From the IMG/VR virus record IMGVR_UViG_3300028800_000057: 26,812 nt of DNA; one strand, written 5' to 3'. The position numbers were made by a program, and so were the translations under genes. Positions 2,594 to 26,156 of this stretch are shown piece after piece (within the stretch, counting starts at the first letter, position 1; the number at the start of each line of letters is the position of its first letter). The notes below the pieces were generated by a model that made no database searches, was not told the DNA's origin, and was given only the letters and a program-made list of their open reading frames with translations. Origin of the DNA: a virus (taxonomy: Duplodnaviria > Heunggongvirae > Uroviricota > Caudoviricetes).

Positions 2594-2968
2594 ATGCCTG
2601 AAAAAGATCCCTGGGAGGCTTACGGATTCACAGCCGGGGACGAGGATGGGGCCTGGATAGTCCCAGGAGCAGAGATCATTCCTCTCCCAGACAGTAAGTG
2701 TCCAGATCACGTTGCAGACTGGACTATCCCTAGGCAAAAAGACCCGACCCCCTACGACATGCCAGTGTTTGTAATCGATCGGATCATTACCTTCAAGAAC
2801 GGTCGGCGGAGAGTGTTCATCTACATGTCTGGTGCGCCTTCCATCAGGGCTGACCGAGACCTTGAAGACATCAAGGACAAGTGGCGGTTATCACCTGGAC
2901 CCGAGCCAGAACCAGAGATTCAAGAGCCCGTGATCCTCTCTCGATACGAACGCAAGTTCGTAATCTAG
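2594..2968 (+). CDS. Hypothetical protein of 124 aa with a C-terminal SRYERKFVI tail.
   Basis: Track ORF with a GGTGTA element upstream. The C-terminal RYER motif is shared with six other ORFs. Its stop TAG shares bases with the convergent gene's stop (CTAG at 2965-2968). Confidence 0.6.
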   Translation: MPEKDPWEAYGFTAGDEDGAWIVPGAEIIPLPDSKCPDHVADWTIPRQKDPTPYDMPVFVIDRIITFKNGRRRVFIYMSGAPSIRADRDLEDIKDKWRLSPGPEPEPEIQEPVILSRYERKFVI

Positions 2969-3840
2969 ATTCCCCGTATGATTCTCTCGTACCGACTAAG
3001 TGGCTCGGGTGGCTTCTCGCCTTGAACCCAGTGTCTGAGAAATAACCTCAGGGGCATCCCAGCACTAGCCCCACGCCAGTGTTTGATGCGAACAAAAGGT
3101 CCTTGAATCAGGACATTGTTCTCAGTCTCAATGACTTGAGCAAATAAATCCTTGGAGTTGGATCTAACCCAGACACCAGCCCTCAACCAGCTGGGTACAT
3201 CCGCCATTGTGGTTACTGGTTCAACGGGGACAGGTGGCGAGAGTAACTCTTGAGGTACTTGTAGTCCAGCAGCTATCAAGTTACTCATCTGATTGACATC
3301 ATCTATGGCAGTATGTGGGTCATTAAGGCGCAAATACCTTAATCGTTCAAGGTTCGCTAGCCCAGTACTAATAGCATCACCAAATACTGAGTTGTCGAGA
3401 GGTCGGTGCATCTCAGCTGCATAGGGTGGGTCTGTGAAGACATGTGGAAGCTCAGGTATGAGCATAGACCTCCTAGCGGTAGCCGTATAATCCAACCTAG
3501 TTCTTAATGGGACTGCAAATGCTTGACCCAACCGCTCTCTCCGGATCGGAGTGCGGATAAAGTCTTCGATTAACTGTTGGATGTTTCTCGGAGGTCCTGG
3601 TTCATAATCAGGCTCGCGTGGTACGACTTGGTATCTATTAATCTCTCTCGCTAGTTGTTCGTCATAGGGGCGTTCCCGTCCTTCATAGAAAAGAACCCCA
3701 ATAGTGATTGACCCCCTGCTACTAGTAAGGTCCACCTGTTGAACGAACTCATCCCGGCGCAAGCGGTAGGCGTGGTCACGAGCTTGAACTCGAGCATCAA
3801 CCGTTGCATCATATCTGAGGGTCCAGTGAGCTCCAGGCAT
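2965..3840 (-). CDS. Hypothetical protein of 291 aa with a C-terminal SRYERIIRGI tail.
   Basis: Long ORF with no recognisable domain. It is the last gene of a co-directional minus-strand cluster running 4870 to 2965. Confidence 0.6.
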   Translation of the reverse strand: MPGAHWTLRYDATVDARVQARDHAYRLRRDEFVQQVDLTSSRGSITIGVLFYEGRERPYDEQLAREINRYQVVPREPDYEPGPPRNIQQLIEDFIRTPIRRERLGQAFAVPLRTRLDYTATARRSMLIPELPHVFTDPPYAAEMHRPLDNSVFGDAISTGLANLERLRYLRLNDPHTAIDDVNQMSNLIAAGLQVPQELLSPPVPVEPVTTMADVPSWLRAGVWVRSNSKDLFAQVIETENNVLIQGPFVRIKHWRGASAGMPLRLFLRHWVQGEKPPEPLSRYERIIRGI

Positions 3841-3844
3841 GACT

Positions 3845-4048
3845 TCAACCTAGGACCGTAATCTTGAAACAAACTAAGTGCCAAAAGGTATCCCTTGTAC
3901 CTTCAGCTGAAGAGAACGGAAGTACGAAACCCCTATCGTGTTCGAGAAAAGATCCTTCACAGTGAAAGCACTTCTCGGTGACAGGGACCGGTACTTGCTC
4001 AGTACCCTCACATATAGGGGCACCCCAAGAGGCACCAAACCACTTCAT
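3845..4048 (-). CDS. Small Cys-rich hypothetical protein of 67 aa.
   Basis: Its ATG overlaps the stop of the upstream gene (ATGA at 4045-4048). CxxC-type cysteines: CEG...CFHCEG. Confidence 0.4.
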   Translation of the reverse strand: MKWFGASWGAPICEGTEQVPVPVTEKCFHCEGSFLEHDRGFVLPFSSAEGTRDTFWHLVCFKITVLG

Positions 4049-4524
4049 ACAGAGCCTTCCTTCATGAATCGTGGGCGGTACTTGCCATCAGGCCACTTCA
4101 CAATCTCAGACCACTCCTGTAGGGTTCTGACAAATACGTCACCAGCTTTGCTTGAGTAGACCACGGCGGGCTCCCCCTTAGGTCCTTGGAGCAAGAGTGC
4201 CTTGCCGTATACCAAGTAGAGTGTCCCTTTGAAGTGGAGGTACGGACCTGAATTGGGATTGCGGGCATCCTTGTAGTCCCCGCGCCAGATGCATTGAAGC
4301 AAACCCTCGGCCTCCTCGACTTGCTCTAGGGTTGCCTTCATCATCGGATTCTGAGCTGGATACTGCTCAAGGAATTTACCTAGAAGAGGTGGATCAGCAG
4401 AACATACTTTCTTAGCCCTATTCTCAGCGTCCTGCAGGTCTCCAACAGAGATATCTCCAAGAGGCCTGCATAAGGCGTAACAAGCAAGGGCTGCGTAAGG
4501 GTTCGATATGCAAGGAGTTGCCAT
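4045..4524 (-). CDS. Hypothetical protein of 159 aa.
   Basis: Track ORF. A minus-strand GGTGTA (TACACC at 4534-4539) lies 9 nt upstream of its ATG. Confidence 0.55.
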   Translation of the reverse strand: MATPCISNPYAALACYALCRPLGDISVGDLQDAENRAKKVCSADPPLLGKFLEQYPAQNPMMKATLEQVEEAEGLLQCIWRGDYKDARNPNSGPYLHFKGTLYLVYGKALLLQGPKGEPAVVYSSKAGDVFVRTLQEWSEIVKWPDGKYRPRFMKEGSV

Positions 4525-4533
4525 GCAACCCTA

Positions 4534-4539
4534 TACACC
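4534..4539 (-). promoter_or_regulatory. GGTGTA upstream element for the gene starting at 4524.
   Basis: Reads TGGTGTAtagggttgcATG on the minus strand. Confidence 0.4.
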
Positions 4540-4543
4540 AGGT

Positions 4544-4870: not shown

Positions 4871-4878
4871 AAAAATAA

Positions 4879-4939
4879 CGGCTCTGGAGGAACTGCACCC
4901 AAGAGGGGGGGTACGGGTGCAGTCACGCGTCCAGAGCCG
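4879..4939. repeat. Nested perfect hairpin: outer stem 10 bp CGGCTCTGGA/TCCAGAGCCG, inner stem 8 bp CTGCACCC/GGGTGCAG.
   Basis: Read directly from the sequence. It sits in the 353-nt noncoding island between the HNH gene start and the NADAR gene start. Confidence 0.6.
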
Positions 4940-5150: not shown

Positions 5151-5205
5151 TGTAGGGTAAACGGGTCCCACGACCCACGATAGGACTTTACACCACCGAT
5201 TCTCC

Positions 5206-5211
5206 GGTGTA
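5206..5211 (+). promoter_or_regulatory. GGTGTA upstream element (CCGGTGTA), 12 nt before the ATG at 5224. It is paired with an inverted copy (TACACC at 5189-5194) facing left.
   Basis: Divergent pair TACACCaccgattctccGGTGTA. Confidence 0.4.
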
Positions 5212-5223: not shown

Positions 5224-5754
5224 ATGGATCAGATCTTATTTTATTCACCAAAAGAGATCCCGTATGGTTGCTTCTCGAACTTTTCGAGACACTCAGTACT
5301 GTACAAGGGCCGGAATTGGAGTACTTCAGAGGCTGCCTTCCAGGCGATGAAGTTCCACCCTCACCGGTTGGATTTGGTGGAAGCAATCCTAAGAGCCCCC
5401 AAGCCAATGGAGGCGGCCGCACTTGGGAGGGACCGTAGCTACCCGATTCGAGATGACTGGGATAGCCCAGTGTCCAATTGGGGTGGGTTGGAGGGGTCTC
5501 TTGTTGATGATGGGCGGGGACCGGCGAAGGCCATTAAACTAGTCAAGGACTTGGTCATGTTCGAAGTGGTTCTAGCCAAGTTCACCCAGCACTCGGATAT
5601 CCGAAGCATCCTTCTGGGCACTGGGACCTTGGCTCTTGTTGAGAACGCCATCCACGACCCGTACTGGGGGATTGGTTGCTCAGGGGTCGGTGTCAACCGG
5701 TTGGGTAAGGTTTTGATGCTAGCTCGACAGTCGCTCAAGGACCAAAAACTCTAG
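5224..5754 (+). CDS. NADAR domain protein (YbiA/DUF1768-like), a putative ADP-ribose-processing N-glycosidase.
   Basis: FYS..PYGCFSNFS...YKGRNWSTSEAAFQAMKF, GRDRSYPIRDDW and DPYWGIGCSGVGVNRLGKVLMLAR match conserved NADAR blocks. Confidence 0.8.
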   Translation: MDQILFYSPKEIPYGCFSNFSRHSVLYKGRNWSTSEAAFQAMKFHPHRLDLVEAILRAPKPMEAAALGRDRSYPIRDDWDSPVSNWGGLEGSLVDDGRGPAKAIKLVKDLVMFEVVLAKFTQHSDIRSILLGTGTLALVENAIHDPYWGIGCSGVGVNRLGKVLMLARQSLKDQKL

Positions 5755-6164
5755 ATCACCCAAGGGCGCTCGTATCGACTGGGCATCCCTTCTGACACTT
5801 CAGAACCGCCGGCTTGGAACGCCTCTCTGATGATAAGGAAGAGGTATTGCTCCAAAGTTCCAGTCCAATTTGCTGGAAACTTGCCAGTAGCACGTAGTTC
5901 TCCGATCATCAGGGTTTCCACTTTGCACTCGACAAGATGGACTTTTGGTCGAAATTGGCACCATTGCCTGGGAAGCTTCAAGTCTAACTTCTTGTTATCC
6001 TTCACCATTGCAAGGGCTAGTGCAAAGATCCCTGGTGTTTTATCGGCGGACACAATCACAGGATCGCCTCGATGGAAAGCGGTCAAAAGAGCCCTAACAT
6101 CGTTTTGAGTCACCAGCTCGGGGCTACTGGGATTCTTTGATGAATTGAAGAACGGAGCTGCCAC
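5751..6164 (-). CDS. Hypothetical protein of 137 aa with a C-terminal SRYERPWVI tail. It has a GTG start.
   Basis: Track ORF. Its stop shares CTAG with the NADAR gene's stop. AGTGTA lies 12-17 nt upstream of its start. Confidence 0.5.
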   Translation of the reverse strand: MAAPFFNSSKNPSSPELVTQNDVRALLTAFHRGDPVIVSADKTPGIFALALAMVKDNKKLDLKLPRQWCQFRPKVHLVECKVETLMIGELRATGKFPANWTGTLEQYLFLIIREAFQAGGSEVSEGMPSRYERPWVI

Positions 6165-6205
6165 GTCAGTAGATTACACTTTTCTGAACTACTTTCCAGA
6201 GCTTT

Positions 6206-6211
6206 GGTGTA
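6206..6211 (+). promoter_or_regulatory. GGTGTA upstream element, 22 nt before the ATG at 6234.
   Basis: Reads ctttGGTGTAgtatctctctaaatcgcatgctATG. Confidence 0.35.
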
Positions 6212-6812: not shown

Positions 6813-7370
6813 ATGGGACAAGTACCTATTATATTTCTCGATCTGGATGGAGTTTTGAATTCATTTCGGTTGCTTTTACAGTTGAGTCGCACTGATCCAA
6901 CGGAAGAGGAGGTAGAGTACGCCACCAAGATCGCCACCAAATACTACCATGGGTATCCCGTGGATATGCTGATCCACGATTTAAGAAGCATCGATCCCCT
7001 CTGTGTTGAGTATCTCAACCAGATCATTGAAGCCTCGGATGCTGATGCTGTTCTATCCTCCACCTGGCGCTTCAGTCACAGCATCTCTGGGCTTCAGAAG
7101 CTATTGGAGTTTCGTGGGTTCAAGGGTGAATTGATTGACATCACGCCAGTTAACGTCAAGAGTCCCGCGAAGCTTAGGGGTTATGAGATTCAAGCATGGT
7201 TGGACCTCAACCCCGAAGTTGAGAGCATGGTGATTTTGGATGATGACACAGATATGGCGCATCTTAGTAGCCATCTGGTTCGAACGGACTTAGCTGTTGG
7301 GCTTACTAAAAAAGATGCTCAGCGGGCAATCTCAATCCTCCTCGAACCGGTAAGGCCTGTCAGGACTTAG
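6813..7370 (+). CDS. HAD-superfamily phosphatase, 5'(3')-deoxyribonucleotidase-like.
   Basis: Motif I is IIFLDLDGVLN (DxDGV), motif II is VLSSTW, and motif IV is VILDDDTD. The match is by motif only. Confidence 0.6.
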   Translation: MGQVPIIFLDLDGVLNSFRLLLQLSRTDPTEEEVEYATKIATKYYHGYPVDMLIHDLRSIDPLCVEYLNQIIEASDADAVLSSTWRFSHSISGLQKLLEFRGFKGELIDITPVNVKSPAKLRGYEIQAWLDLNPEVESMVILDDDTDMAHLSSHLVRTDLAVGLTKKDAQRAISILLEPVRPVRT

Positions 7371-7577
7371 GTGCTTGCATTCCTTGCACATGTAGTGCCC
7401 ATCTGACCAGCAAGTACCCGTTCCTGGTCCATAGTCAAACATCTGGCATGGGTTCATTCGGTCACGCACCCCCACCTCACCCACGACGTTGTTACGAATC
7501 TGCTCTTGACGTTCCAAGTACTCGCGTTCCACCTCAAGATAGCGGATTATTCTCTCATATCGAGTTGGGACTGGCAT
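7332..7577 (-). CDS. Small zinc-ribbon-like hypothetical protein beginning MPVPTRYERIIRYLE.
   Basis: Internal ATG at 7577 of the 7332..7712 track ORF. Using it avoids overlap with the phosphatase gene. The N-terminal TRYERIIR is identical in 7 of 8 residues to the C-terminal SRYERIIR of the 2965..3840 gene. CWSDGHYMCKEC are Cys ligands. Confidence 0.35.
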   Translation of the reverse strand: MPVPTRYERIIRYLEVEREYLERQEQIRNNVVGEVGVRDRMNPCQMFDYGPGTGTCWSDGHYMCKECKHLSPDRPYRFEED

Positions 7578-8192: not shown

Positions 8193-9185
8193 ATGCTCAG
8201 AACATACCACACGCATAACGGGACCCAACGTCAAGCCCATCTTGGCGGTTGGAAGAAGCAAACTAATGACACTCGGGATGAGGAGTACCGAGTTAAAGTA
8301 CCTCAGGGGCTACTTACTGCAGCCCCGACATCAATGGATCTACGGTCCATCTGCTCGACTATCGAAGATCAGGGTCAGCTTGGTTCATGTACGGCCAACA
8401 TGTTTGCCGGCATGGTTGAATCCAATGAGATCAGTGGTGGAGCGAAGAATAGCCTCATTGGCGCTTCCTCAGCAGCTGTCGTTGTCTCGAGTATTGTCAC
8501 GAATGCCGACGGAAGTATCTCGTTTTCTACAAAGGTGACCCCAGCGGCCGCTCCCGCACCAACCCCCACGCCAACCCCCACGCCAACCCCCACGCCAACG
8601 CCCAAGACCTTGATTCAGGTCAGTAGGTTGTTCGAGTACTACGCCACTCGCAAGATCGAAGGGACGGTCAGTGAAGATAGTGGAGCCACGATCCGTGACA
8701 CGATCAAGGCTGGTGCTCAGTACGGTATCGCTGATGAAGCATCTTGGCCGTACGACATCAACAAGTTCACGACCAACCCTCCGTCGACGATCTGGACTGC
8801 AGCCGCCACCCACAAGGTTACAAGCTACCACTCAATTACGGATGGTGACTTAGTCACGATGAAGGCTGCTATTGCATCCGGATTCCTCGTTGGCTACGGC
8901 TTCCAGGTCTACGACTACTTTATGAGCCAAGATATGGCCACGAAGGCCTTCTTGGATCTACCTGCCAAGACTGAGTCTCTCCAGGGTGGGCACGCTCAGT
9001 GTCTCGTTGGCTACAACGACAACATGGTCAACCCCTTCAGATCAACCTCCAAGGGTGCTTTCCTCGTACGCAACAGCTGGGGAACTGATTGGGGTCTAGC
9101 AGGTTACTACTGGGTCACTTATGAATACCTGAAAAACACGTCACTTGCGAGTGACTTCTGGGTAATCCAGAGCGAAGCACTGTAG
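8193..9185 (+). CDS. Papain-like cysteine peptidase (family C1) with an internal Pro-Thr linker insertion. It has no signal peptide and no propeptide.
   Basis: DQGQLGSCTANMFAG carries the oxyanion Gln and catalytic Cys. GGHAQCLVGYND carries the His. VRNSWGTDWGLAGYYWV carries the Asn and Trp. Confidence 0.85.
   Translation: MLRTYHTHNGTQRQAHLGGWKKQTNDTRDEEYRVKVPQGLLTAAPTSMDLRSICSTIEDQGQLGSCTANMFAGMVESNEISGGAKNSLIGASSAAVVVSSIVTNADGSISFSTKVTPAAAPAPTPTPTPTPTPTPTPKTLIQVSRLFEYYATRKIEGTVSEDSGATIRDTIKAGAQYGIADEASWPYDINKFTTNPPSTIWTAAATHKVTSYHSITDGDLVTMKAAIASGFLVGYGFQVYDYFMSQDMATKAFLDLPAKTESLQGGHAQCLVGYNDNMVNPFRSTSKGAFLVRNSWGTDWGLAGYYWVTYEYLKNTSLASDFWVIQSEAL
8541..8606 (+). repeat. Pro-Thr/Pro-Ala tandem codon repeat ((CCAACCCCCACG)n) encoding PAAAPAPTPTPTPTPTPTPTP.
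   Basis: Read directly. It lies inside the C1 peptidase ORF, between the Cys and His regions. Confidence 0.85.
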
Positions 9186-9239: not shown

Positions 9240-10481
9240 TTAACCAGTAGGAGGAGAACAAGGTGACAGCTCAGGACCTTTGGGGCCTTCTGCCTTCTTC
9301 TCAGTTTTGGGGGCAGCCAACTCTTTCATTCGGGATACCAGCTTGAGCACCTTTGATTGAGGTCGATACTTCAGTTGCAGGGCTATCTCCCTTAGATAGC
9401 CGCCGGTGAGACCTTCGGTACACGCTACGATCTCGCTGATGTCCTCCAGTCCTTCGATTCCAAACTCCTTCAGGTACCCGCGCAGGATCTCTTCTCGGTC
9501 GGTAGCGTTGGGATCCTCGAACTCTTTGATCTCATCAATGCGTCCAGGTCGCAAGAGGGCCGCGTCCAGTTTGGTGATATCGTTGATGGTGATGCAGACT
9601 GTGACATTCGGGAACTTGCCCTTGAAGTCAGTGAGAGTAGAGAACAAGGTAGGCAAGGACTTCTCAAGCTCTGCGCAACGGTCGAGGTCGTCGATAACCA
9701 AGAAGTTGGGGGACAGGCTCTGGATGATGAGGTCGAGATCTTTGGTCCCGACGCTGGTCAAGCCATTGGCATCAATGCGTAGAGTGCGTCCACAGGTCAG
9801 CATTGCCAATTGAAGAGCAAAGCTGGTCTTCCCACACCCTTGCTTGCCGGCAAGCAAGTACGTGCGCGGTACCTTGTCGTGGAGATACTTCAGGTGTTGC
9901 TCCTTGAACTCCTCTAGATCTAGGACTAACTGCCCAATCAGCGGGTCCGTCATGAGTGGGATCTCGGAGTAACTGACTTGGATCTCACTTCGACTGGTAT
10001 CGAATACTAGCCCCAAGTGAAGACGGTCGTGGAACTCTTCCCAGAGAGCCCCCATGGTCTTCTCGAAGCTGAACTCCTTGGTATACCAAAAGTTCGCTGA
10101 GTACTCGGGTCTTCCACCCCAATGCCACTCCAGAAAGTAGATAGTCCCTATCACGGGATCTGATGCCTCAACCACGTCAAGAAACTCTCCTATCGGAACG
10201 TGATTGACCTTGAAGCTATTCCTGAGGTCAGTTCCGAAGAACGAGTTCACGAACTGCTGGTTGCTGGCTTCTATGAGGTCCTTGTTGGAAAAGAACTCAA
10301 AGAGAGCGGTGGACTTGCCATTGGTTATCTTGGTGAGAGAATCAAATATTCCCAGAACTTTCACTATGGTTCCGAAGATCCCATCCTTGTGGGTCGGGAT
10401 CTTCGGGATGATATCGGTTGAGAACGCTAGGGCTTGTCTCCAACCAAAACGCTTAGTTTTCTTGGTACCGGGTTTGTTCAT
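9240..10481 (-). CDS. AAA+ ATPase (classical AAA clade) with an N-terminal domain of about 200 aa of unknown function.
   Basis: Walker A is LLAGKQGCGKTS, Walker B is FLVIDDLD (DD rather than DE), sensor 1 is ITIND, and RPGRIDE is the second region of homology with its arginine fingers. Its ATG overlaps the upstream gene's stop as TAATG. Confidence 0.85.
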   Translation of the reverse strand: MNKPGTKKTKRFGWRQALAFSTDIIPKIPTHKDGIFGTIVKVLGIFDSLTKITNGKSTALFEFFSNKDLIEASNQQFVNSFFGTDLRNSFKVNHVPIGEFLDVVEASDPVIGTIYFLEWHWGGRPEYSANFWYTKEFSFEKTMGALWEEFHDRLHLGLVFDTSRSEIQVSYSEIPLMTDPLIGQLVLDLEEFKEQHLKYLHDKVPRTYLLAGKQGCGKTSFALQLAMLTCGRTLRIDANGLTSVGTKDLDLIIQSLSPNFLVIDDLDRCAELEKSLPTLFSTLTDFKGKFPNVTVCITINDITKLDAALLRPGRIDEIKEFEDPNATDREEILRGYLKEFGIEGLEDISEIVACTEGLTGGYLREIALQLKYRPQSKVLKLVSRMKELAAPKTEKKAEGPKGPELSPCSPPTG

Positions 10482-12328
10482 TAGGCGGTTGTGGATACAC
10501 CGGCCTTCTGCAGTTCGATCTCGAAGTCGTCAATTACCGCAGATACAAAGGCTGAATCAGGTTCATCAGCCCCATTGGACTTCACTTGAACCGGCGGAGC
10601 TTTCTTTGGTTCTACCTTCTTGGGCTCAGGAGCTTTCTTTGGTTCTACCTTCTTGGGCTCAGGAGCTTTCTTTGGTTCTACCTTCTTGGGCTCAGGATCC
10701 TTCGTAGACTCTTCTTGATCTAGAAGAGCGGCTAACTCGTCCGCGCTAATGTCCGTGCCTGTAGAGGGTGTGGGAGCAGGTGCTGACGGTTCTGAACTGA
10801 GGACCTCGTCCAACAAGTCAATGTCTAGCTCATCGTCCTTCTTAGGTTCAGCTGATGCTGTTACGGGTTCAATATCGGACGTGTCGACCAACCCACACTT
10901 GGGGCAGTTCGCATGGGTGGCGTATGAGTCTGCGGTTTCAACCTGACTACCACAGAAGCAGCACTTGAACTTATCTGCCGATAGCTCCTGTGACAGCTTG
11001 ATCCGCTCTACTTGAGCCTCTGTAATCCCACTTAGCCCACCATGACCCTTACTGCAAGTAGCACCACTTGGACTATTCAATTGGGGTTCTAGGCATTCCG
11101 GGCAGTATAAACCGTTGGGCTCTAATGTCTTCCTGGTAACGGTGAGCCTATCAATACTGATCTTGATGAAGCCCATCAAATCAATGAGGGCATCACGCAT
11201 CCCTTGGGGGTCTACTGGAGATTCGTCAATCCCCTGTACAAGAGAGGTGCACAGGTTTACCACTTCAGTGGCATCGGTTGGTATAACCAGACCTTGTTGT
11301 GGTACGGCAGTATAGTGGGAGATGAGGTTCATTGTCGTGAGATACGACGTCAGTTCCGTATGCAAGCCCACGAGTACTGAAGTAGCTGACTCGTCGAGTA
11401 CAATGACCCTCAAGGCTTCCTTCAGTAGACGGCGCGCAGTAGTTATTCTCTCTACTGGGGTCTCTGGAGGATCCCTATCACTGTCGTCGTCATCAACCTT
11501 GGATGGTTCGAGAGCATGGGCGGGCTTCTCTTCAGCCTTGGGCGGCTCCGGTGCTACTTCAACGGTGACTGGTTTGGCAGGCTTGGGTGTTGGGATCGGG
11601 GCGCCGGTACTGGCGGTGACAGAGGTACCCCCCTTGGCTGCTTCTCGGATGGTGTCAGACAGCGTCGTCTTGGTGCGCGGGGTCTTGAGGTAGATGACCA
11701 CGTCGTCTGCAGAGGGAGCTCGACTTTCACGCTTGGCAGCTTCCTCAGCGAATTTGATGGCATCAATAACCATAGTGGTAGCCAGTGACTTCGAGTTAAC
11801 CCTGTCCTTGTAGTCCTCGGGGACAATCTTGCTACTGAAGATGATGCGATAGGTGGTGGCAAGCTTGAAAGTGACTCCCAACCGATCAGCCAACTTTTTG
11901 AGGGCCTCCCCTTTCTTGCCCTTTTTGCCCTGTTCACTGGCTTCTAGGATCTGCTCCAACCTTTCAAGGGAGGTAGCCATCCTTCTTGGGTCAAGATGCC
12001 GGCGCTTAGCATTGGCGCTCATCAAGTACTCGAGTTCTTCTTCTTTTGATTCAAAGTTCTCGTGAACTCGAACAGCAATCACTTCCTCTTTGATCTGCGC
12101 GCTGGTCAGGCCGCCTTGTTCGAGAGTCCAACAGAAGCCAGAGTACCTGATGTGGCCCGACAGTATGGTTCCGTCGTCAAGGATGATGAGGGGCTCCTGA
12201 AGGCCTCTCTTCTGGATATCCTCTCTAATCTCTTCGTAACTTGCCTCGTCGGTAGGAAGACCGAAGATCTTTACGTTGTCTGGGTGTAGTCTCAGGGAAC
12301 CAATCTTACGAAATTCAATCTTGTCCAT
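10481..12328 (-). CDS. ParB/Srx-like N-terminal domain protein of 615 aa with two zinc ribbons and a C-terminal KKVEPKKAPEP tandem repeat.
   Basis: GLQEPLIILDDGTILSGHIRY is the ParB box. Two zinc ribbons: CPECLEP...CSKGH and CCFCGSQ...CPKCG. GGTGTA lies 15 nt upstream. Confidence 0.8.
   Translation of the reverse strand: MDKIEFRKIGSLRLHPDNVKIFGLPTDEASYEEIREDIQKRGLQEPLIILDDGTILSGHIRYSGFCWTLEQGGLTSAQIKEEVIAVRVHENFESKEEELEYLMSANAKRRHLDPRRMATSLERLEQILEASEQGKKGKKGEALKKLADRLGVTFKLATTYRIIFSSKIVPEDYKDRVNSKSLATTMVIDAIKFAEEAAKRESRAPSADDVVIYLKTPRTKTTLSDTIREAAKGGTSVTASTGAPIPTPKPAKPVTVEVAPEPPKAEEKPAHALEPSKVDDDDSDRDPPETPVERITTARRLLKEALRVIVLDESATSVLVGLHTELTSYLTTMNLISHYTAVPQQGLVIPTDATEVVNLCTSLVQGIDESPVDPQGMRDALIDLMGFIKISIDRLTVTRKTLEPNGLYCPECLEPQLNSPSGATCSKGHGGLSGITEAQVERIKLSQELSADKFKCCFCGSQVETADSYATHANCPKCGLVDTSDIEPVTASAEPKKDDELDIDLLDEVLSSEPSAPAPTPSTGTDISADELAALLDQEESTKDPEPKKVEPKKAPEPKKVEPKKAPEPKKVEPKKAPPVQVKSNGADEPDSAFVSAVIDDFEIELQKAGVSTTA
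10597..10695. repeat. Perfect 33-nt tandem repeat in three copies, encoding KKVEPKKAPEP three times.
   Basis: GAGCTTTCTTTGGTTCTACCTTCTTGGGCTCAG repeated three times on the plus strand. It generates spurious antisense ORFs such as 10204..10707. Confidence 0.9.
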
Positions 12329-12343: not shown

Positions 12344-12349
12344 TACACC
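12344..12349 (-). promoter_or_regulatory. GGTGTA upstream element (TCGGTGTA) for the ParB-like gene.
   Basis: Reads cttcGGTGTAaagggttgcagcagtATG on the minus strand. Confidence 0.4.
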
Positions 12350-12360
12350 GAAGTAAGAGC

Positions 12361-12651
12361 ATGACCCGCCTGTGGAAATTTATAGAAGAGCACTACTTTT
12401 TAGCCGCTTGGATAGTGGTGGTGTTCATTGGTCAGACCTCGAAAGTGATTCAGAGCTTTCTACATATTTTTCACAGGCCCGCTACCATCAACCACTTTGG
12501 AGCAAATGAGGGTGAGAATGAGCCGACACAACCGCCCCAGCGTCCTCGACTAGGGTCTGGAACACCGAGAGCTACTGCACCGGTTCAACGCTCAACGGTA
12601 CTCACAAGAGCCGAGAGGATCATACGAAACCTCACGGGTGGAAACTCCTGA
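12361..12651 (+). CDS. Hypothetical protein of 96 aa with an N-terminal TM helix and a C-terminal TRAERIIRNL.
   Basis: Track ORF with a hydrophobic N-terminus (AAWIVVVFIG). Its C-terminal nucleotides match the RYERIIR tail of the 2965..3840 gene at 13 of 15 positions. Confidence 0.45.
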   Translation: MTRLWKFIEEHYFLAAWIVVVFIGQTSKVIQSFLHIFHRPATINHFGANEGENEPTQPPQRPRLGSGTPRATAPVQRSTVLTRAERIIRNLTGGNS

Positions 12652-14904: not shown

Positions 14905-16731
14905 ATGCACGAAGACGTCCTTGCTCTCCGAGTAGCCGCACGCTTCCAAAGAAGCGTGATTTCTGCGTTCATCTCGGACAAGTGGTTCAAAGCCAAGAAG
15001 AGTGAGATAAGCACCCTTTTGAAGATTCCCATGCCGTCTCACAAGTCGGAGATGTGGGCATACTACTTAGATGAGAAAGTAGGGGACTTCCTAACTAAGT
15101 TCAACGATGACTTCAAGAGCATAGTTACCTTTGAGCCTGCCCTGGAGTCTGTTGCTCGCAGGACCAATGATGCCAAAGCCGAACTCAAGGTTATCGTTGA
15201 TTCGTTGGAACTCGTTTGCAAGTACCCTGGGCATGTCAACTTCTTGGACCCGGCACAGTACCTGAAGTGGAAAGCGTCTCTCGAAATCCATGACAAGATT
15301 GCTGAGGTCTCGAAGACTCTTGGTGGGTTCCTCAAGTGGAGTTGGACGATCGACAATTCTGTAGTGGAGCGTCTTGTTCAACGAACTCTCAAGGTAGCTA
15401 CTCCGGAACAACTAGCCTCATTGACTTCGGAATATGAGGATCGGATTGATCAGGTTAGGTACAACTTTCTAGCCTCTATCAAGTTTGATGAGTCGGCACT
15501 CAAGGCTCTCAAGAGAACGAAGCTTGATAAGTTTGATCCCATCAAGTGGGTCGATTGGATCTACGCCACCTTGAGAGCTAACTACTCGGAGTCAGTCATT
15601 CAAGAGAAGGATGCCTACCGAGAGTTCGACATGTACGGGATGAAGGTTGTTATCGACGACAACTCTATGCAACCAGAGGATGCCAGGAAGTACATCAAGT
15701 ATATCGATGAGGCTCACACGAGGATGAAGGCCAAGGGCTTTGAGAAGGCCTGGTATGGTACGTTCTTCATTCAGTGTGAGAGGTGCGGCGGGGTCAACCA
15801 CAACACAGGTGGTGGGGTTGGAGGTCACTTCGTTATCGGACCCGATACTGTGTCTTGCTTCGAGCGCCCAAGCTCATTCGTAGTAGAACTCCTAGCTCAC
15901 GAACTAGGTCATCGCTACTGGTACAAGCAGATGACTTCCACTCAAAGAGCTAAGTTTGAGAGCCTAGTAAAAGTCAGGCCGACTGCGATACGTCCATCTG
16001 AGGGTGACATCAAAGCCAACCCCATCCCTGAAGAGAGGGTCAAAGAAGCCCACTCAAAGGTGGATCATGTAGTGGACCAGTTGGACCAGAAATTGGAGCT
16101 CTTTCGCAAGTCTAAGCTCCGTTGGTTTACGAAGATCATTGATGCCTTCTACGAGCCTATCACTAAGGAAGCTTGGAACTTCAAGAACGAGATCATTACT
16201 GCAGTTCACTCAGCAGGCGCTGACTCTACCATCAACCCAACGGTGAAGAAGGCCTTTGAGCCGATCATAGAGCTAGGTACCGAGATTCACACACTTTGCC
16301 TGCACATGGATGATGACTTGAAGCGGATCATGAACACCTACCCTGACGGGACCGACTTCAACTCAGCCTTTAGGGTTGAACGAGGTAAGTGGATTGACCA
16401 GATCTTGACCTTGCTATACCGAATCACCAAACAAGCTCATCGCTACTTGGACATGGCGGTTGAAGCTTACAATAAGGAAGAGGCGGGCAAGGGAAAGAAG
16501 ATTGTAGAGAACTGGGAGCGTCGCTACCAGGAAGATACTCGTCCTGTTGCCCCTGTCTCCGATTATGGTGGGTCCAACATTGATGAGGCGTTTGCTGAGG
16601 CGTTTGCTTATTACGTGATGGGCAAAGAGATGACTCGGGATCAGATTGACTCATTCAAATCCGTCTTCTCCTCAGTGGGTGACCCCCTCGTTGACTTGGT
16701 GGCCCTACGCTATATGCAAAATATTTCTTGA
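14905..16731 (+). CDS. Large HExxH protein of 608 aa, a putative zincin-like metallopeptidase. The family is not assignable.
   Basis: ELLAHELGHRYWY carries the HExxH motif, preceded by CERCGG and a Gly-rich loop. There is a C-terminal EAFAEAFAYY. Confidence 0.55.
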   Translation: MHEDVLALRVAARFQRSVISAFISDKWFKAKKSEISTLLKIPMPSHKSEMWAYYLDEKVGDFLTKFNDDFKSIVTFEPALESVARRTNDAKAELKVIVDSLELVCKYPGHVNFLDPAQYLKWKASLEIHDKIAEVSKTLGGFLKWSWTIDNSVVERLVQRTLKVATPEQLASLTSEYEDRIDQVRYNFLASIKFDESALKALKRTKLDKFDPIKWVDWIYATLRANYSESVIQEKDAYREFDMYGMKVVIDDNSMQPEDARKYIKYIDEAHTRMKAKGFEKAWYGTFFIQCERCGGVNHNTGGGVGGHFVIGPDTVSCFERPSSFVVELLAHELGHRYWYKQMTSTQRAKFESLVKVRPTAIRPSEGDIKANPIPEERVKEAHSKVDHVVDQLDQKLELFRKSKLRWFTKIIDAFYEPITKEAWNFKNEIITAVHSAGADSTINPTVKKAFEPIIELGTEIHTLCLHMDDDLKRIMNTYPDGTDFNSAFRVERGKWIDQILTLLYRITKQAHRYLDMAVEAYNKEEAGKGKKIVENWERRYQEDTRPVAPVSDYGGSNIDEAFAEAFAYYVMGKEMTRDQIDSFKSVFSSVGDPLVDLVALRYMQNIS

Positions 16732-17944: not shown

Positions 17945-19300
17945 CGTTGCTCGTCAATAAATGGTTTAGGGTACTTCTACACCGACGCGAGACAGAATCA
18001 CTCCTGTGTCTTAGATGCCAGAGCCTATGCTGCTTGCCAGAACACAGGATCAATGCCGAGTTCGAACATCTCGTGAACGAGGACAGCCAAGTTGTAGGCG
18101 AGGGTTTTGCAGAGGATCTCGTTCACTTGGGCATCATACATCTTCGATCGAACAGCACTGCCTAGCTTCCTCTTGACCGCACTGAAAGTGCACTCAACAT
18201 TCGACCTCTGATGGTAGTGCTCTAGAAACTCATCCTTCTTGTAGTTGAAGAGATGCCAAAGCTTCCTCCATTGCTTCGATCCATCACTCGTCGAGTTGAT
18301 CTTGAATGGGATGTACGGAACTGCACCTACCTCCGCAATCACATCCAGGTTACCATAGCTCAAGTAGGCTTTGTCGGCAGACACGTCGACTACATCGAAG
18401 TGTTTTGCCGTTGTCTGTACTAATCCAGGAAGCTCAGGACAGTCGGCAACATCACCTTGAGTAACTTCTACGGCCGTCACGATATTTGTGATCGTCCCAA
18501 CCGCGTAATGAGCCTTGAGGTACTTGGCCTTCTTCATCTCCCGTCCGTACTTGTGATCGAACCATCTGTTGTACACGGAAGTTGAGAATCCTGTAGAGTC
18601 TACTGCGAAGGTTGTCTCAACTGCCCTTAGAGGCTGAGTACTCTCCTCGATCAAAGTCTTGAGCAGCGGGGCTAACTCAGGTTGCTCCATGTGAAGGAAC
18701 AAGGTGTTGTAATGAGGGCTGCAGGTGATATGGCCCTTCTCTCGGCATTCTCGAATGTCAGTCGAGGCTCTCCGCCCTGACCAAGTCGAATAGGTCTTCA
18801 TGACGTTACCGAAGACGATATCGCCTAAAGGCAACCGAGGACGGCCTCTACCCTGTTGTGGTGGTTGGGTGATCCCATCGCACAAGCCTTTGAGAAGGGC
18901 CTCTACCACCTCCTTCTCTTGAGTCTGGGCCGCATTGTAGGCTGGCCAATCCTGAGTGTAAGTTACTCGAACCGTATCCGTGGTGAGGATCGTTCCATCT
19001 GATCTAAGGACTCGATGCCTCGTGAACTCTACGGCATACTGGTGCTTACATGTGCACCCTCTGGTTTCGAAGTCCGGACAGGTGCAACTGTGAGCTTTGG
19101 GATCTACAACGTAGGAGCCACCGTGAGACTGGCTGGGGACAACCCAAAGCTTGCCATTCTTCTTGATCCGCCTCGTGCTGGCTATCTGTAAGCCTTTCTC
19201 TTCTCGTGGGCTTAGATTCGATTCTACGTTACTCATACCTAGTATTACGCATGAGAGCGTCGGATCTCAACAAGATTGACGTAATATGTGGGTTTAGGTA
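17945..19300 (-). mobile_element. IS4/IS5-like element. Its ends were not located.
   Basis: Only a 7-nt inverted match was found (CCGACGC at 17981-17987 against GCGTCGG at 19256-19262). The boundaries are a guess. Confidence 0.3.
18025..19236 (-). CDS. DDE transposase of the IS4/IS5 superfamily (DDE_Tnp_1-like) with an N-terminal SWIM-type zinc finger.
   Basis: N-terminal CTCPDF...CKHQYAV is a SWIM CxCx(n)CxH. C-terminal ADKAYLSYGNLD and HYHQRSNVECTFSAVKRKLG match the YxxRxxxExxFxxxKxxxG signature of IS4/IS5 transposases. Confidence 0.8.
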   Translation of the reverse strand: MSNVESNLSPREEKGLQIASTRRIKKNGKLWVVPSQSHGGSYVVDPKAHSCTCPDFETRGCTCKHQYAVEFTRHRVLRSDGTILTTDTVRVTYTQDWPAYNAAQTQEKEVVEALLKGLCDGITQPPQQGRGRPRLPLGDIVFGNVMKTYSTWSGRRASTDIRECREKGHITCSPHYNTLFLHMEQPELAPLLKTLIEESTQPLRAVETTFAVDSTGFSTSVYNRWFDHKYGREMKKAKYLKAHYAVGTITNIVTAVEVTQGDVADCPELPGLVQTTAKHFDVVDVSADKAYLSYGNLDVIAEVGAVPYIPFKINSTSDGSKQWRKLWHLFNYKKDEFLEHYHQRSNVECTFSAVKRKLGSAVRSKMYDAQVNEILCKTLAYNLAVLVHEMFELGIDPVFWQAA

Positions 19301-22138: not shown

Positions 22139-22363
22139 TTATGCGTCTGGCAGTAGCTCACCGAATTCGGCCAGTAGTTCTTTTCTTTTGGCCTCAGCTT
22201 CGGCTTCAGTGGCGTATGCTTTGGATTCCGGTATGAACTCCAGGAAGCAACCCGTCCTAAGTGAGTATCCGTGGTGCTCCGGGACGTACTTACACTGGAG
22301 CTCCTTCTTCTCAATGTTCCCATCGTACTCAACTAGAAACCATCTTTTCACATAGTCCGACAT
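22139..22363 (-). CDS. Hypothetical protein of 74 aa.
   Basis: Track ORF. A minus-strand GGTGTA (22373-22378) lies 9 nt upstream. Confidence 0.5.
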   Translation of the reverse strand: MSDYVKRWFLVEYDGNIEKKELQCKYVPEHHGYSLRTGCFLEFIPESKAYATEAEAEAKRKELLAEFGELLPDA

Positions 22364-22378
22364 GGTGTATTCTACACC
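22364..22378. promoter_or_regulatory. Perfect palindrome GGTGTAttcTACACC filling the 18-nt gap between divergent start codons at 22363 (-) and 22382 (+).
   Basis: Read directly. It places one GGTGTA 9-12 nt upstream of each divergent ATG. Confidence 0.55.
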
Positions 22379-24032: not shown

Positions 24033-24214
24033 AGAAGCCAGCGCGCTACCACAAGCTGAGCCAAGCCTTGGCCTGCATCAAGGACGAGACTTGGTTCTCG
24101 TGGTCAAAGAATCGTCTGCTCAAGCGTGCTGGGAATGCGGTAAAGCGCGCGAGCCGTCGGGTTAGCAAGCTGCAGGGAAAGCGTGAGATAGCCGATGTCA
24201 CAAGAGAAATGTAA
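24029..24214 (+). CDS. Small basic protein of 61 aa.
   Basis: ATGA overlap with the upstream stop at 24029-24032. Sequence MKKPARYHKL... is Lys/Arg-rich. Confidence 0.4.
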   Translation: MKKPARYHKLSQALACIKDETWFSWSKNRLLKRAGNAVKRASRRVSKLQGKREIADVTREM

Positions 24215-24222
24215 ATGCTGCG

Positions 24223-24576
24223 ATGGATCGGGTTCAGTCCCAACGGGTTGGCATACTCGCCAGGGAACTGAATACATTTTCACTCCAGATGGTGAATTCA
24301 AGGAGTGCTTCGGTTGTGATGGGACAGGTGTACCATTACGCTTACGTGAGGGTACACCCAATGCTTGAGCCTATTGAAGCCGGTGGTACTTGGACTAGTG
24401 TAACCGAGTGTGAAGTATGCTCAACCACCTGTAGTGTCAGATTTGAGCATACTGTAGATGAGCTAGGTCCGAGCCTGAAAGCACAGTTGCCACCCGGGTG
24501 GGCTTTCTTCAAAGAGGCTCCAACTAGTACGGCAATCATGTGCCCTGAGCATGCTGTGACTCAGAGTCATGACTGA
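24223..24576 (+). CDS. Hypothetical protein of 117 aa with CEVCSTTC.
   Basis: Track ORF. Confidence 0.4.
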   Translation: MDRVQSQRVGILARELNTFSLQMVNSRSASVVMGQVYHYAYVRVHPMLEPIEAGGTWTSVTECEVCSTTCSVRFEHTVDELGPSLKAQLPPGWAFFKEAPTSTAIMCPEHAVTQSHD

Positions 24577-24907
24577 GGTCCTCTACTTCAAGCCAGAGGG
24601 TCAACCAGAGACATTCGAGGGGGCTATCGAAGCCCTTGGCAACCGCCTAAAGAATGAGAGCAAGCATTGGGTTCAGACGGAGTCCGATATTGAAGTCCTG
24701 AGGGACGGGCTCCAGGCAATCATCGGGGTGAGCATCCGTAACCTGTTATCCCTTTGGGCTGAGACCTCGCCCTTGTACCTGCACATGGAGAGCCGCTTCG
24801 ATCTTCACGACTCCTACAAGATGGCTGATCTCATCATTCTCGAGTATCGTCGTCGAGCGGTTCCAACTCGGTATGAGCGTGTCCTCGATGGTAACCGTTC
24901 GCCTTGA
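24569..24907 (+). CDS. Hypothetical protein of 112 aa with a C-terminal PTRYERVLDGNRSP.
   Basis: Its start overlaps the upstream gene by 8 nt (ATGACTGA). It carries the RYER motif. Confidence 0.5.
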   Translation: MTEVLYFKPEGQPETFEGAIEALGNRLKNESKHWVQTESDIEVLRDGLQAIIGVSIRNLLSLWAETSPLYLHMESRFDLHDSYKMADLIILEYRRRAVPTRYERVLDGNRSP

Positions 24908-25451
24908 CGAGTCCTGCATCAACTGCGCTCGGTACCACCGAGTGAGCCTTGTGGGCCATCCAATTATCTCGGTACTTCTGAGCTAAAGGCTTGTACTTGA
25001 TGAACAGGGCGTTCTCAGCGTTGTACTTCTCAGCCTGATTCGTGTAGTTGAACGACCCAGTTTCTACGGCGCCTGGGATGATGATGAGCTTGTTATGGGC
25101 AATCGGATGCTTCTTGTCGATGAGAACATCCATACCATTGTTCAGGAAGTCCTGGAGTACCGCGGTCCCAAGGTCAGACCGGTCTAAGAGTATGTGGACT
25201 ATGCCCTTCTTGGCGATGAGGGCGTTCTCGATGCTCGAGTCCGTAAAGCTGTAGGCTTGGACAAGGATCTCCTTGTCCTCGGAATTGATGAAGTTGACGA
25301 TCTTAGCTTCGCAACCACCAGCCGGTGAGAAGCAGACGTCCAGCCCTGAGACAGTGATGCTTGCCCCTACCTCGTCATTTTGAACAATAGTCTGTTCTGA
25401 CTTATGGGTGCAAGAACACAGGAGTAAGGCCAACAGAACAGGTTTCAGCAT
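24834..25451 (-). CDS. Nuc-like endonuclease of the phospholipase D (HKD) superfamily with an N-terminal signal peptide.
   Basis: HNKLIIIPGAVETGSFNYTNQAEKYNAENALFI matches HxK...GSxNxT...N.EN of Nuc/PLD. An internal ATG at 25451 gives signal peptide MLKPVLLALLLCSC. The track ORF starts at 25532. Confidence 0.8.
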   Translation of the reverse strand: MLKPVLLALLLCSCTHKSEQTIVQNDEVGASITVSGLDVCFSPAGGCEAKIVNFINSEDKEILVQAYSFTDSSIENALIAKKGIVHILLDRSDLGTAVLQDFLNNGMDVLIDKKHPIAHNKLIIIPGAVETGSFNYTNQAEKYNAENALFIKYKPLAQKYRDNWMAHKAHSVVPSAVDAGLVKANGYHRGHAHTELEPLDDDTRE

Positions 25452-25468
25452 GATACTAGTCCGGAATA

Positions 25469-25585
25469 TCAACGCATTACCCGGATAATCTCCGGCGGTC
25501 GATAACTGTACCCCGCGATCACGAACGCACAACCCAGGGTGACCAACGCTATGAGGATGACTAAGTTCAGATCTCTAAGGGTCAT
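25469..25585 (-). CDS. Possible 38-aa single-TM peptide MTLRDLNLVILIALVTLGCAFVIAGYSYRPPEIIRVMR. It is below the track's size cutoff.
   Basis: Hand-translated small ORF between the coiled-coil protein gene and the nuclease gene. It is hydrophobic. Confidence 0.25.
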   Translation of the reverse strand: MTLRDLNLVILIALVTLGCAFVIAGYSYRPPEIIRVMR

Positions 25586-25628
25586 AGTAACTGCCAAAGA
25601 TACGCTTGGCTAGTCAGTATGTCCATAG

Positions 25629-26156
25629 TTAGATCACCGGGTCCCGTTCGTATCGGCTCTTACGGTGATGGTCCGCTGGCTTAGGGTTAGGGTCTTCCTT
25701 CTCTGGGGGCTGAGGTTTCTCCGGTATCGAGGGAGAGGGTTCGACGGTCTCCCTCGTGTGAGTGACTCTAATCTCGACGCCTGGTCGGACTAATCCATTC
25801 CCATCGAAGATATGATCTATAGACTGCCCAATCGAATTAAGTGATTGGGCAAGAGCATCAACCACACCAACTGGTCTCCTATCTACACTTCTGGACTGTA
25901 GTGGTAGAGCAGCTGTTAAACTATGAAGTTGCCTTCGTTCCTCTGCAAGACGATCCCGCTCTCTTTGAAGTTCAGCTCGACGAGTCTCCATCTCCTCTCG
26001 TACTTCAGCTCGAAGCCTCTCCTCTATGGTTCGCTCTGAACTACGCGGAACCGGGACATTACCTTCGATTGATTTGATGGTAGCTTTGACCGCCAGCACG
26101 ACTAACGTGATGATTCCAATTGTAGCAAGTATGAACAGGACGACTATTCTAGCCAT
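25629..26156 (-). CDS. Membrane-anchored coiled-coil protein of 175 aa with a C-terminal SRYERDPVI tail.
   Basis: N-terminal TM helix IVVLFILATIGIITLVVLAV. A charged heptad region REEMETRRAELQRERDRLAEERRQL. It carries the RYER tail. Confidence 0.55.
   Translation of the reverse strand: MARIVVLFILATIGIITLVVLAVKATIKSIEGNVPVPRSSERTIEERLRAEVREEMETRRAELQRERDRLAEERRQLHSLTAALPLQSRSVDRRPVGVVDALAQSLNSIGQSIDHIFDGNGLVRPGVEIRVTHTRETVEPSPSIPEKPQPPEKEDPNPKPADHHRKSRYERDPVI

Follow-up and report, generated by a model that had tools for sequence, protein, structure and literature searches.

Short peptides that serve as terminal addresses are already known from several systems, including the T4 capsid-targeting sequence, encapsulin cargo peptides, peroxisomal targeting signal 1 (PTS1) and degrons. 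Encapsulin cargo carries a peptide of about 10 residues at the extreme C-terminus, which follows a flexible Pro/Gly-rich linker and allows unrelated cargo proteins to be bound by one receptor surface. The T4 sequence (on IPI-III and Alt) is also a short terminal peptide on unrelated accessory proteins, although it occupies the N-terminal ~10 residues and is found on fewer than 10 proteins. PTS1 (SKL-COOH, read by Pex5) is a proteome-wide C-terminal tag with upstream enhancer residues, again on unrelated proteins and with one receptor, and degrons such as ssrA (with ClpX/SspB) and the MuA C-terminus are terminal, unstructured tags with a hydrophobic end that are usable at either terminus. The stretch of DNA analysed here (the window; 26,812 nucleotides of IMG/VR record IMGVR_UViG_3300028800_000057) is from a metagenomic huge phage of a bacterial host, and several of its small, otherwise unrelated proteins end in a tail with the consensus [ST]R[YF]ER..VI. 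This tail differs from the known address peptides in sequence, scale, the presence of membrane proteins among its carriers and visible lineage co-evolution. It is read here as a modular terminal docking peptide, a short linear motif for one cytoplasm-facing receptor, with a probability of roughly 75% for the docking-tag reading as a whole. Seven sites lie in the window, in two forms (A and B) that are described below:

2939-2968, plus strand: SRYERKFVI-stop tail (form A) of the carrier at 2594-2968, 124 aa, with a Pro-rich linker
2997-2965, minus strand: SRYERIIRGI-stop tail of the carrier at 2965-3840, 291 aa
5780-5751, minus strand: SRYERPWVI-stop tail (form A) of the carrier at 5751-6164, 102-137 aa by the start chosen
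7565-7551, minus strand: core of the N-terminal copy MPVPTRYERIIRYLE in a zinc-ribbon gene at 7332-7577, 81 aa
12604-12651, plus strand: TRAERIIRNLTGGNS-stop tail (form B, core TRAER) of a membrane-anchored carrier at 12361-12651, 96 aa
24866-24907, plus strand: TRYERVLDGNRSP-stop tail (form B) of a DUF6794 carrier at 24569-24907, 112 aa
25658-25629, minus strand: SRYERDPVI-stop tail (form A) of the carrier at 25629-26156, 175 aa

All seven sites had been picked out in an earlier, sequence-only reading, and each is present and in frame of an open reading frame (ORF). Enrichment over shuffled sequence, which this reading proposed as a check, is clear in the window, where [ST]R[YF]ER occurs six times in six-frame translation against a mean of 0.14 and a maximum of 2 in 300 dinucleotide-preserving shuffles. 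Occurrence in sense and in frame is likewise borne out, as the back-translated pattern MGNTAYGARMGN has seven matches on both strands, six of which are in-frame tails and one an out-of-frame chance match (21603). Two copies that had been counted despite their departure from the consensus or its usual place are true members. The degenerate TRAER carrier has an ortholog in the sister phage L055 (7641-7943) whose C-terminus is PPTRFDRINNS, and the N-terminal copy of the zinc-ribbon protein is retained as MPVPTRYERIIHYIE in the L028 ortholog and shifts by lineage to MNRFTRIL at the start of the L055 ortholog. The tail of the 124-aa carrier is kept in the orthologs of L020 (SRYERKPVI) and L055 (PPTRFEREDVI), and that of the 5751-6164 carrier in L028 (SRYERAWVI) and in L055 at 15866-16273 (APTRFERADVI). 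The 291-aa carrier, which forms a convergent pair with the 124-aa carrier (4 nt overlap), has SRYERI preserved in 8/8 orthologs at 75-35% identity, and the orthologs of L055 and L020 end in RTRFERILMDDD and PRHTRPWVI, respectively. In the DUF6794 carrier the Pfam domain spans residues 13-96 and the tail lies outside it. The 25629-26156 carrier has an N-terminal membrane segment, a coiled coil and a Pro-rich linker before the tail, which is predicted to lie in the cytoplasm from the positive charges following the membrane segment. Further tails are found in the 10 kb to the right of the window (SRYERPPVI, SRYERIADPLKWVI, NRYEREPVI and TRYTRVLEGQVI, each followed by a stop).

Selection acts on the peptide. 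This was claimed from the window and holds in an alignment of 25 distinct nucleotide versions of the form A tail, in which information content has a three-base period (codon positions 1 and 2 at ~2 bits, degenerate third positions at ~0.1-0.5 bits) and the 12 bases 3' of the stop show no conservation. Serine is encoded by TCN in 14 tails and AGY in 10, both Arg positions use CGN as well as AGR, Ile is ATC, ATA or ATT, and the stops are TAG (8), TAA (8) and TGA (9); half of the 25 tails were found with a pattern fixing CGN and TAR, so these counts lean accordingly, and the AGR and TGA cases come from a protein-level scan. The window itself has the mixture that had been reported for it, with Ser from TCT, AGT and AGC and Arg from CGN, AGA and AGG. 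The common ATCTAG or ATCTAA ending is also correct for the window, but elsewhere relatives use ATC, ATA and ATT and all three stops. In orthologs of the 291-aa carrier with only 35-39% overall identity the string EKPxEP[LT]SRYERI is unchanged, and in an alignment including two sister-lineage orthologs both tail Arg residues fall within 31 invariant columns. A repeated DNA or RNA element overlapping gene ends (a repetitive extragenic palindrome or miniature inverted-repeat transposable element, a terminator, a promoter, a recombination site or a small mobile element) was considered, given that the core nucleotides in the window are alike (CGRTAYGAR) and that one tail contains a perfect 7-bp hairpin, TACGAAC-GCAA-GTTCGTA. 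However, conservation tracks codons with third positions near 0 bits, codon families switch for Ser and Arg, Ile and stop codons vary, nothing is conserved beyond the stop, and six of the seven pattern matches are in frame and sense. The candidate was rejected and its probability is negligible. The hairpin is absent from all other tails and was likewise dropped as a feature. No carrier-specific upstream promoter motif was found; carriers are just packed closely in operons, where the gap upstream of them has a median of 3.5 nt (41 nt for the remaining genes), and they are clustered along the genome.

In form A the core begins exactly 9 residues from the C-terminus, which is the case in 95/126 carriers. 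Two lineage versions exist. Among 44 form A tails of the lineage with Tyr in the core (Y-lineage), R stands at position -2 relative to the core in 25, followed by L, P or V, and the core itself is S (37), T (5) or N (2), then R (44), Y (44), E (39) and R (44); the remaining residues are P (14), K (13), D (7) or E (5), then P (22) or W (20), V (43) and I (44). Among 46 tails of the lineage with Phe (F-lineage), P precedes the core in 37, the core is T (40) or S (6), R (46), F (46), E (45) and R (46), and E (31) or D (8), then D (30), P (7) or E (7), V (46) and I (39) follow. Form B has [V/I][L/I] directly after the core and then a short, mostly acidic extension, with 3-18 variable residues after the core, as in TRFERILEDDD, TRFERVLGDHALDPD, TRYERVLDGNRSP and SRYERIIRGI. 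Common to both forms are the core, the aliphatic pair and a negative charge, which is provided by the carboxylate or by Asp/Glu. Tail variants with D, Q, H or T instead of Glu exist. Of the 120 strict cores, 110 lie in the last 22 residues of the protein, 2 are N-terminal and 8 internal. The core follows a linker in which Pro makes up 16.2% of the 15 preceding residues, compared with 6.4% in the remaining carrier sequence, which agrees with the earlier remark that Pro usually stands ahead of the motif. S/T-x-x-E is a helix N-capping box; in form A position 0 is S, T or N in 90/90 tails and position 3 is E in 84/90. The AlphaFold2 (AF2) model of the 291-aa carrier (mean predicted local distance difference test score, pLDDT, of 59) places a short helix at 283-290 after the Pro linker with moderate pLDDT (about 72), and a Foldseek search of viral models with this model gave no informative match.

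One of the two N-terminal cores belongs to a ThiF-like enzyme. ThiF/MoeB-like E1 enzymes in two related loci (L056, 5101-5886; L085, 12416-13150) start with RYERQ or RYERN strings matching the tail core, which we take to be native to the ThiF/MoeB family. The match is probably a coincidence; no other known enzyme family was found to contain a tail-like string. A ThiF/E1-like enzyme as reader of the C-terminus was dropped for the same presumed family-native origin of the string and for its position in L085, where the gene adjoins an RNA ligase gene.

The tail recurs on a large scale in relatives of the window. A degenerate DNA pattern for [ST]RYERxxVI-stop matched 28 loci in the metagenome collection. 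At 12 of these (GC 0.50-0.56) the match terminates an ORF of 65-211 codons, whereas at 15 (assorted GC) it terminates an ORF of 9-35 codons, as chance matches do, and one further locus (L017; GC 0.63, 65-codon ORF) is probably a chance match too. The 12 true loci, 48 kb in total, hold 22 [ST]RYERxxVI tails. In the sister lineage L055 the AAA+ ATPase is 59% identical, the gene order is as in the window, and P-T-R-F-E-R tails stand on 9 of 34-35 called genes. A TRFER pattern found 24 IMG/VR loci, six of them from IMGVR_UViG_3300028654_000001, a complete-looking genome of 512,571 bp, of which a 6-kb piece (L080) has ten tail-bearing ORFs, nearly all its genes. The window flanks and related contigs together yield 126 distinct tail-bearing proteins. 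A comparison of 128 carrier bodies with the tail removed gave at least 86 unrelated BLAST families, so that the carriers are otherwise unrelated, as the sequence-only reading had held. The strict core occurs 120 times in 626 proteins, where 0.56 would be expected by chance. The tail is present on 143/670 predicted genes (~21%), a share biased upward because most loci were fetched by tail match; 6/40 in the window and 9/35 in L055 are less biased.

Outside this group the tail is absent from what was searched. The neighbourhoods of AAA+ ATPase homologues at 55%, 47% and 25% identity (L052, L053 and L054; 17.8-21 kb) hold no tail, and no other recurrent C-terminus exists among 38 (L052) and 36 (L053) called genes. 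For two carriers a homologue exists in the tail-less L053. The first of these shares 60% identity over 129 residues and ends where the 16-residue tail segment of the carrier begins; the other is a 68-aa Tad2-like protein. The tail is therefore shown to be modular, and the sampled neighbourhoods limit it to one clade of huge phages. One codon-restricted DNA pattern of [ST]RYERxxVI-stop, scanned over bacteria and archaea (one genome per species, 185,579 species), gave seven matches, all of chance type. IMG/VR scans with an AGY-Ser codon pattern and with the 291-aa carrier had no match; later patterns found the clade. GenBank phage records contain no nucleotide match to the window, no protein match to its AAA+ ATPase and only chance matches to the tail peptide (some of them antisense to genes of Arthrobacter phages), and Protein Data Bank (PDB) sequence searches with the two lineage consensus peptides, RRLSRYERPWVI and LPPTRFEREDVI, had no match. 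A profile built from 35 tails (40 aa each) and compared with 5.8 billion proteins was uninformative, with nine candidates left after the word filter and a single match at E=3.4. In the literature the peptide strings were not found as a motif among the matches listed ('rfered' is confounded by 'interfered'), and no link was found between a shared C-terminal motif and huge phages. These searches of literature, PDB and GenBank phage records agree with the initial impression that the motif is not a recognised signal.

The two sister-lineage versions, SRYER-[PKD][PW]-VI and P-TRFER-[ED][DE]-VI, differ at four or more positions that change together, and orthologs, unrelated carriers and the N-terminal copy all show the shift. 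Such a coordinated change suggests one shared binding partner that changed too, and points to a single co-evolving receptor as the reader of the tail. The change from Tyr to Phe argues against modification of the Tyr hydroxyl and rules out dependence on it. Since sister phages differ and no real match was found in the bacterial genomes scanned, the phage itself probably encodes this receptor.

Known domains are almost entirely missing from the carriers, whose median length is about 130 aa. Pfam matches among 126 carriers cover five families (DUF6794 twice; a Tad2-like family, AAA_25, RecA and DnaB_C once each), and a PHROG result suggests that the last three, overlapping P-loop matches, are a single RecA-like ATPase. 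PHROG matches of carriers to 'major head protein' and 'head decoration' are weak and cover only 53-100 residues. One to three membrane segments are predicted in 14/128 carriers (11%). The sequence after the last segment is Lys/Arg-rich in each of these 14, which by the positive-inside rule predicts that the tail of membrane carriers faces the cytoplasm.

Set against the known systems, the tail has the encapsulin arrangement of a C-terminal peptide after a flexible linker, by the counts of C-terminal cores and of linker Pro given above. In contrast to encapsulin cargo peptides, it has no GSLxIGSLK-like motif, it is carried by far more proteins, some of them membrane proteins, and no shell or capsid gene is linked to carriers among the 25 most frequent of the 48 Pfam families found in 108 carrier neighbours (genomes seen in part only, here and wherever neighbours are counted). 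With T4 capsid targeting it shares a conserved Glu as a possible protease site and a gene location near tRNA genes. However, 92% of strict cores are C-terminal, on at least 86 families, and the consensus is unrelated: R-[Y/F] precedes the Glu where the T4 peptide, which is N-terminal, ~10 residues long and removed by the prohead protease after (L/I)-x-E, has (L/I)-x. Compared with degrons, the tail is encoded in the gene and not added by transfer-messenger RNA (tmRNA), ends in V-I or an acidic extension and not in LAA, and is far more sequence-specific. No tmRNA gene, including one with a related tag, was found in 41 scanned sources (sampled loci), and the nearby AAA+ gene also occurs in tail-less relatives. 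The MIT-interacting motif (MIM; bound by the Vps4 MIT domain) and the VCP-interacting and VCP-binding motifs (VIM/VBM; p97) are short helices that contain Arg and dock on the N-domain of an AAA+ protein, and the phage encodes a Bcs1/YjoB-like AAA+ protein. The HslU tail (EDLSRFIL, which enters HslV) and HbYX tails share L-S-R-[F/Y] and two aliphatic C-terminal residues with the phage tail, but this has an extra E-R, a variable x-x before V-I and the form B extension, stands on about 100 different proteins and not on one ATPase, and has W or F at position -3 in 21/44 Y-lineage tails against D, P or E in 44/46 of the F-lineage. Docking tails of the HslU kind end freely with an aromatic residue at -3 (F/Y-I-L), and HbYX tails have theirs at -2. 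PTS1 is a tripeptide for eukaryotic organelle import, whereas the tail has 9-12 residues and no compartment is known for the phage system. Compared with class II PDZ ligands, which are hydrophobic at positions 0 and -2, the tail has I at position 0, V at -1 and P, W, D or E at -2, and no PDZ family is among the 25 most frequent neighbour families. A beta-clamp motif (QL[SD]LF-like) does not fit, as there is no Gln-Leu core and the carriers are mostly ORFans that include membrane proteins.

As readers of the tail, the sequence-only reading had named a papain-like protease, an AAA+ ATPase and a cysteine phosphatase encoded in the window. These proposals found no support, as all three have homologues in tail-less phages, which takes away the sole reason to favour them (proximity) without amounting to an exclusion. 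Homologues of the protease (71-57% identity) and of the phosphatase (57-35%) occur in non-syntenic, tail-less huge phages, and those of the AAA+ ATPase in the three neighbourhoods without tails mentioned above. The AAA+ ATPase (9240-10481, minus strand) belongs to the classical clade and has a 200-residue N-domain. It forms its own family, with members on contigs of 435-512 kb (that of the window itself is 443,068 bp), and a second AAA gene (396-405 aa) is present in two related contigs, ~6 kb from the first in one. The AF2 model of the window's AAA+ ATPase (pLDDT 85) has its best full-length matches in Bcs1 and Bacillus subtilis YjoB, with no link to the tail. YjoB is a chambered, substrate-specific chaperone (PMC9565160). 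Bcs1/YjoB-type chambered AAA proteins hold or move folded substrates. The papain-family protease (8193-9185, plus strand) has a (Pro-Thr)n linker made by a 12-bp tandem repeat at 8559-8604. Unrelated huge phages of GC 0.53-0.67 have close homologues of it (71-57% identity), which suggests horizontal exchange of the gene. A second putative protease, 608 aa at 14905-16731 (plus strand), contains the zinc-protease motif HELGH and weakly matches the family of anthrax lethal factor.

A ParB-like protein of 615 aa (10481-12328) with long, low-complexity, repeat-rich regions adjoins the AAA+ gene in the window, in L055 and in the P0016 contig, but not in L052-L054, a comparison of three genomes with three that is confounded by synteny loss. 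A pattern search of IMG/VR confirmed no relatives of it. At 10596-10697 its gene has a perfect 33-bp tandem repeat of 3.1 copies, encoding PEPKKVEPKKA units. The repeat number is polymorphic, as one unit separates the population variants L001 and L002 and the called protein has a length of 561, 604 or 615 aa.

In the proposed mechanism, the tail would be a genetically encoded docking peptide on a large and diverse subset of the proteome of one huge-phage clade, and a single receptor on the cytoplasmic side, co-evolving with the phage lineage, would read it by binding the core, the aliphatic pair and the negative charge. Docking might lead to hand-over to an AAA+ unfoldase or chaperone, or to a protease, so that the tail would act as a conditional degron or processing tag and a whole class of accessory proteins would be cleared or remodelled together; this outcome ranks first but is held only tentatively. 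A Bcs1/YjoB-type AAA+ ATPase and two putative proteases are encoded by the phage, and the genes around the carriers are non-structural ones, with functions in nucleotide metabolism or with products such as tRNA enzymes and sigma factors. A simple degron is harder to reconcile with so many carriers and with a tail of such high sequence specificity. Loading of cargo into the assembling virion is doubtful as an outcome, and recruitment of clients to a scaffold or infection factory is unlikely. Something else altogether, including mimicry of a host docking tail or an effect of the nascent chain, is in total as doubtful as virion loading. Several points weigh against the docking-peptide reading. 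No receptor was found, and tail-less phages also have the AAA+ ATPase, the C1 protease and the phosphatase. The tail is more sequence-specific than known degrons usually are, and we know of no precedent for the marking of ~20% of genes for removal. A free C-terminus is not strictly needed, as form B and internal copies show, so the mode of binding may differ by form. A host-encoded receptor could account for the lineage shift if hosts differ, and the gene calls behind the tail share are a crude ORF selection from loci mostly fetched by tail match. Of the sorting, packaging, docking or processing tag that the sequence-only reading envisaged, the shared tag on unrelated proteins is supported and the proposed readers are not.

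If the tail were a virion cargo-loading signal, it would bind the procapsid interior (scaffold, core or coat), small accessory proteins such as anti-defence proteins would be packaged and injected with the DNA, and a prohead protease may clip after the Glu. The architecture is that of encapsulin cargo peptides (a short C-terminal peptide, a flexible linker and unrelated proteins), and a protease that cuts after Glu, as T4 gp21 and phiKZ gp175 do, would suit the Glu-Arg pair with its near-invariant Glu. One carrier resembles Tad2, an anti-Thoeris sponge from which the phage would profit on entering the cell, some carriers have the weak and partial PHROG matches to head proteins, and carriers adjoin a tRNA array, T4 internal-protein genes also being near tRNA genes. 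However, the 11% of carriers predicted to be membrane proteins would be hard to load into a capsid. Their gene surroundings are non-structural as well, as the 25 most frequent families of the 108 neighbours include none of head or tail proteins, and these two observations weigh against loading; moreover, the PHROG matches are short and the Glu is replaced by D, Q, H or T in some tails. The reading thus stays doubtful. Recruitment of clients, likened to dockerin-cohesin or PTS1-Pex5 pairs but in a bacterial cytoplasm, would concentrate the carriers on a phage scaffold, condensate or factory with neither proteolysis nor packaging. It would suit a tail that soluble and membrane carriers share and that is predicted to be cytoplasmic, that can bind in form B, internal and N-terminal copies without a free terminus, and that shifts by lineage. 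The repeat-rich ParB-like protein stands beside the AAA+ gene in the tail-bearing genomes examined, but its association with the tail is the confounded comparison of three genomes with three, its relatives did not appear in the pattern search, and no scaffold was found, which leaves recruitment unlikely.

Mimicry of a host docking peptide, aimed at a host machine such as HslV or a PDZ-like or clamp-like hub, draws on the similarity of L-S-R-[Y/F] and the aliphatic pair to the HslU octapeptide EDLSRFIL, where F and Y can replace each other (PMC4106860). In addition, 21/44 Y-lineage form A tails end in [W/F]-V-I, like F-I-L, and different hosts would explain the lineage shift. This is nevertheless improbable. 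The extra E-R is foreign to HslU, position -3 in the F-lineage is D, E or P and not aromatic, the aliphatic pair of form B is buried behind the extension, no genome using the tail appeared in the scan of 185,579 bacterial and archaeal species, and the likeness was noticed after the fact among many known tails. A still smaller chance, very slight indeed, is given to an action of the tail in the ribosome exit tunnel, on termination or stalling, and not as a tag of the finished protein. The conserved residues of form A are exactly the last 9 before the stop in 95/126 carriers, Pro or Trp is common at -3 and -4, as near the end of known arrest peptides, and such an effect would be independent of where the protein is finally located. 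Against this stand form B, with its 3-18 variable residues after the core, the N-terminal and internal copies, the about equal use of the three stop codons, and convergent pairs (2594-2968 and 2965-3840) that leave no downstream gene to regulate.

A wider form of the docking-peptide reading, for which the chances are somewhat below even, is a phage-run sorting of the proteome, with a terminal tag of 9-12 residues on ~100 accessory proteins per genome, a dedicated, co-evolving, phage-encoded receptor and a common fate. That fate might be virion loading of an effector arsenal, a phage-built compartment or factory, or joint removal. If true, this would be the first tag-and-receptor system of such scale in a bacterial virus. 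An address tag would place in one functional class about one fifth of the genes that otherwise resist annotation in a group of very large phages, and a receptor or sorting machine would then await discovery. It also supplies a rule for annotation, by which an ORF ending in [ST]R[YF]ER..VI is a member of the class. A synthetic peptide or a fusion of the tail to green fluorescent protein (GFP) is usable as bait for the receptor, and the tail may be a portable tag for directing proteins in phage-infected cells. Between sister lineages the tag has shifted in dozens of genes in a coordinated way, which makes it an unusually clean case of ligand-receptor co-evolution in nature.

Identical sequences of the window's carrier proteins are found on metagenome contigs (European Nucleotide Archive, Joint Genome Institute and Logan assemblies), one of them on a contig of 0.2-1 Mb, and several relatives are IMG/VR viral contigs. 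The source sites are Carex rhizosphere and peat, and the relatives without tails have sizes of 458-463 kb. A 463-kb contig of the same phage group (P0024) is labelled 'Candidatus Pacearchaeota archaeon' at NCBI, probably through a binning error. The window flanks encode sigma factors, a CCA-adding enzyme, a nucleoside deoxyribosyltransferase and an array of 14 tRNA genes directly to the left of the window (L003, 5902-10631; Gly x3, Ala x3, Thr x2, Cys, Ile, Gln, Trp, Asp and Arg). Large tail-less neighbour genes encode sigma factors and enzymes that act in the metabolism of tRNA, nucleotides and DNA, and no head or tail, shell or capsid family is among the 25 most frequent families of the 108 carrier neighbours. 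Tad2-like, Apyc1-like and Acb1-like anti-defence proteins are present in relatives.

An IS607-type pair, serine recombinase TnpA (241-864) and TnpB (861-2291), adjoins the 124-aa carrier, and the corresponding position in L055 is occupied by a 346-aa carrier gene. A 107-codon ORF at 2272-2595 (minus strand) is weakly similar to the N-terminus of this 346-aa gene (31% over 29 aa, E=0.5), so a carrier gene may have been interrupted by the insertion. A second mobile element of the window, at 18025-19236 (minus strand), is a DDE transposase that contains a SWIM zinc finger. The heptamer YGGTGTA occurs 16 times in the window where 4.7 would be expected, in many cases ~10-25 nt upstream of start codons (for example at 2577-2583, 5205-5211, 6205-6211, 12344-12350 on the minus strand, and 22363-22369). 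GGTGTA is the commonest intergenic hexamer in related loci, and the heptamer may be an unusual ribosome-binding or promoter element.

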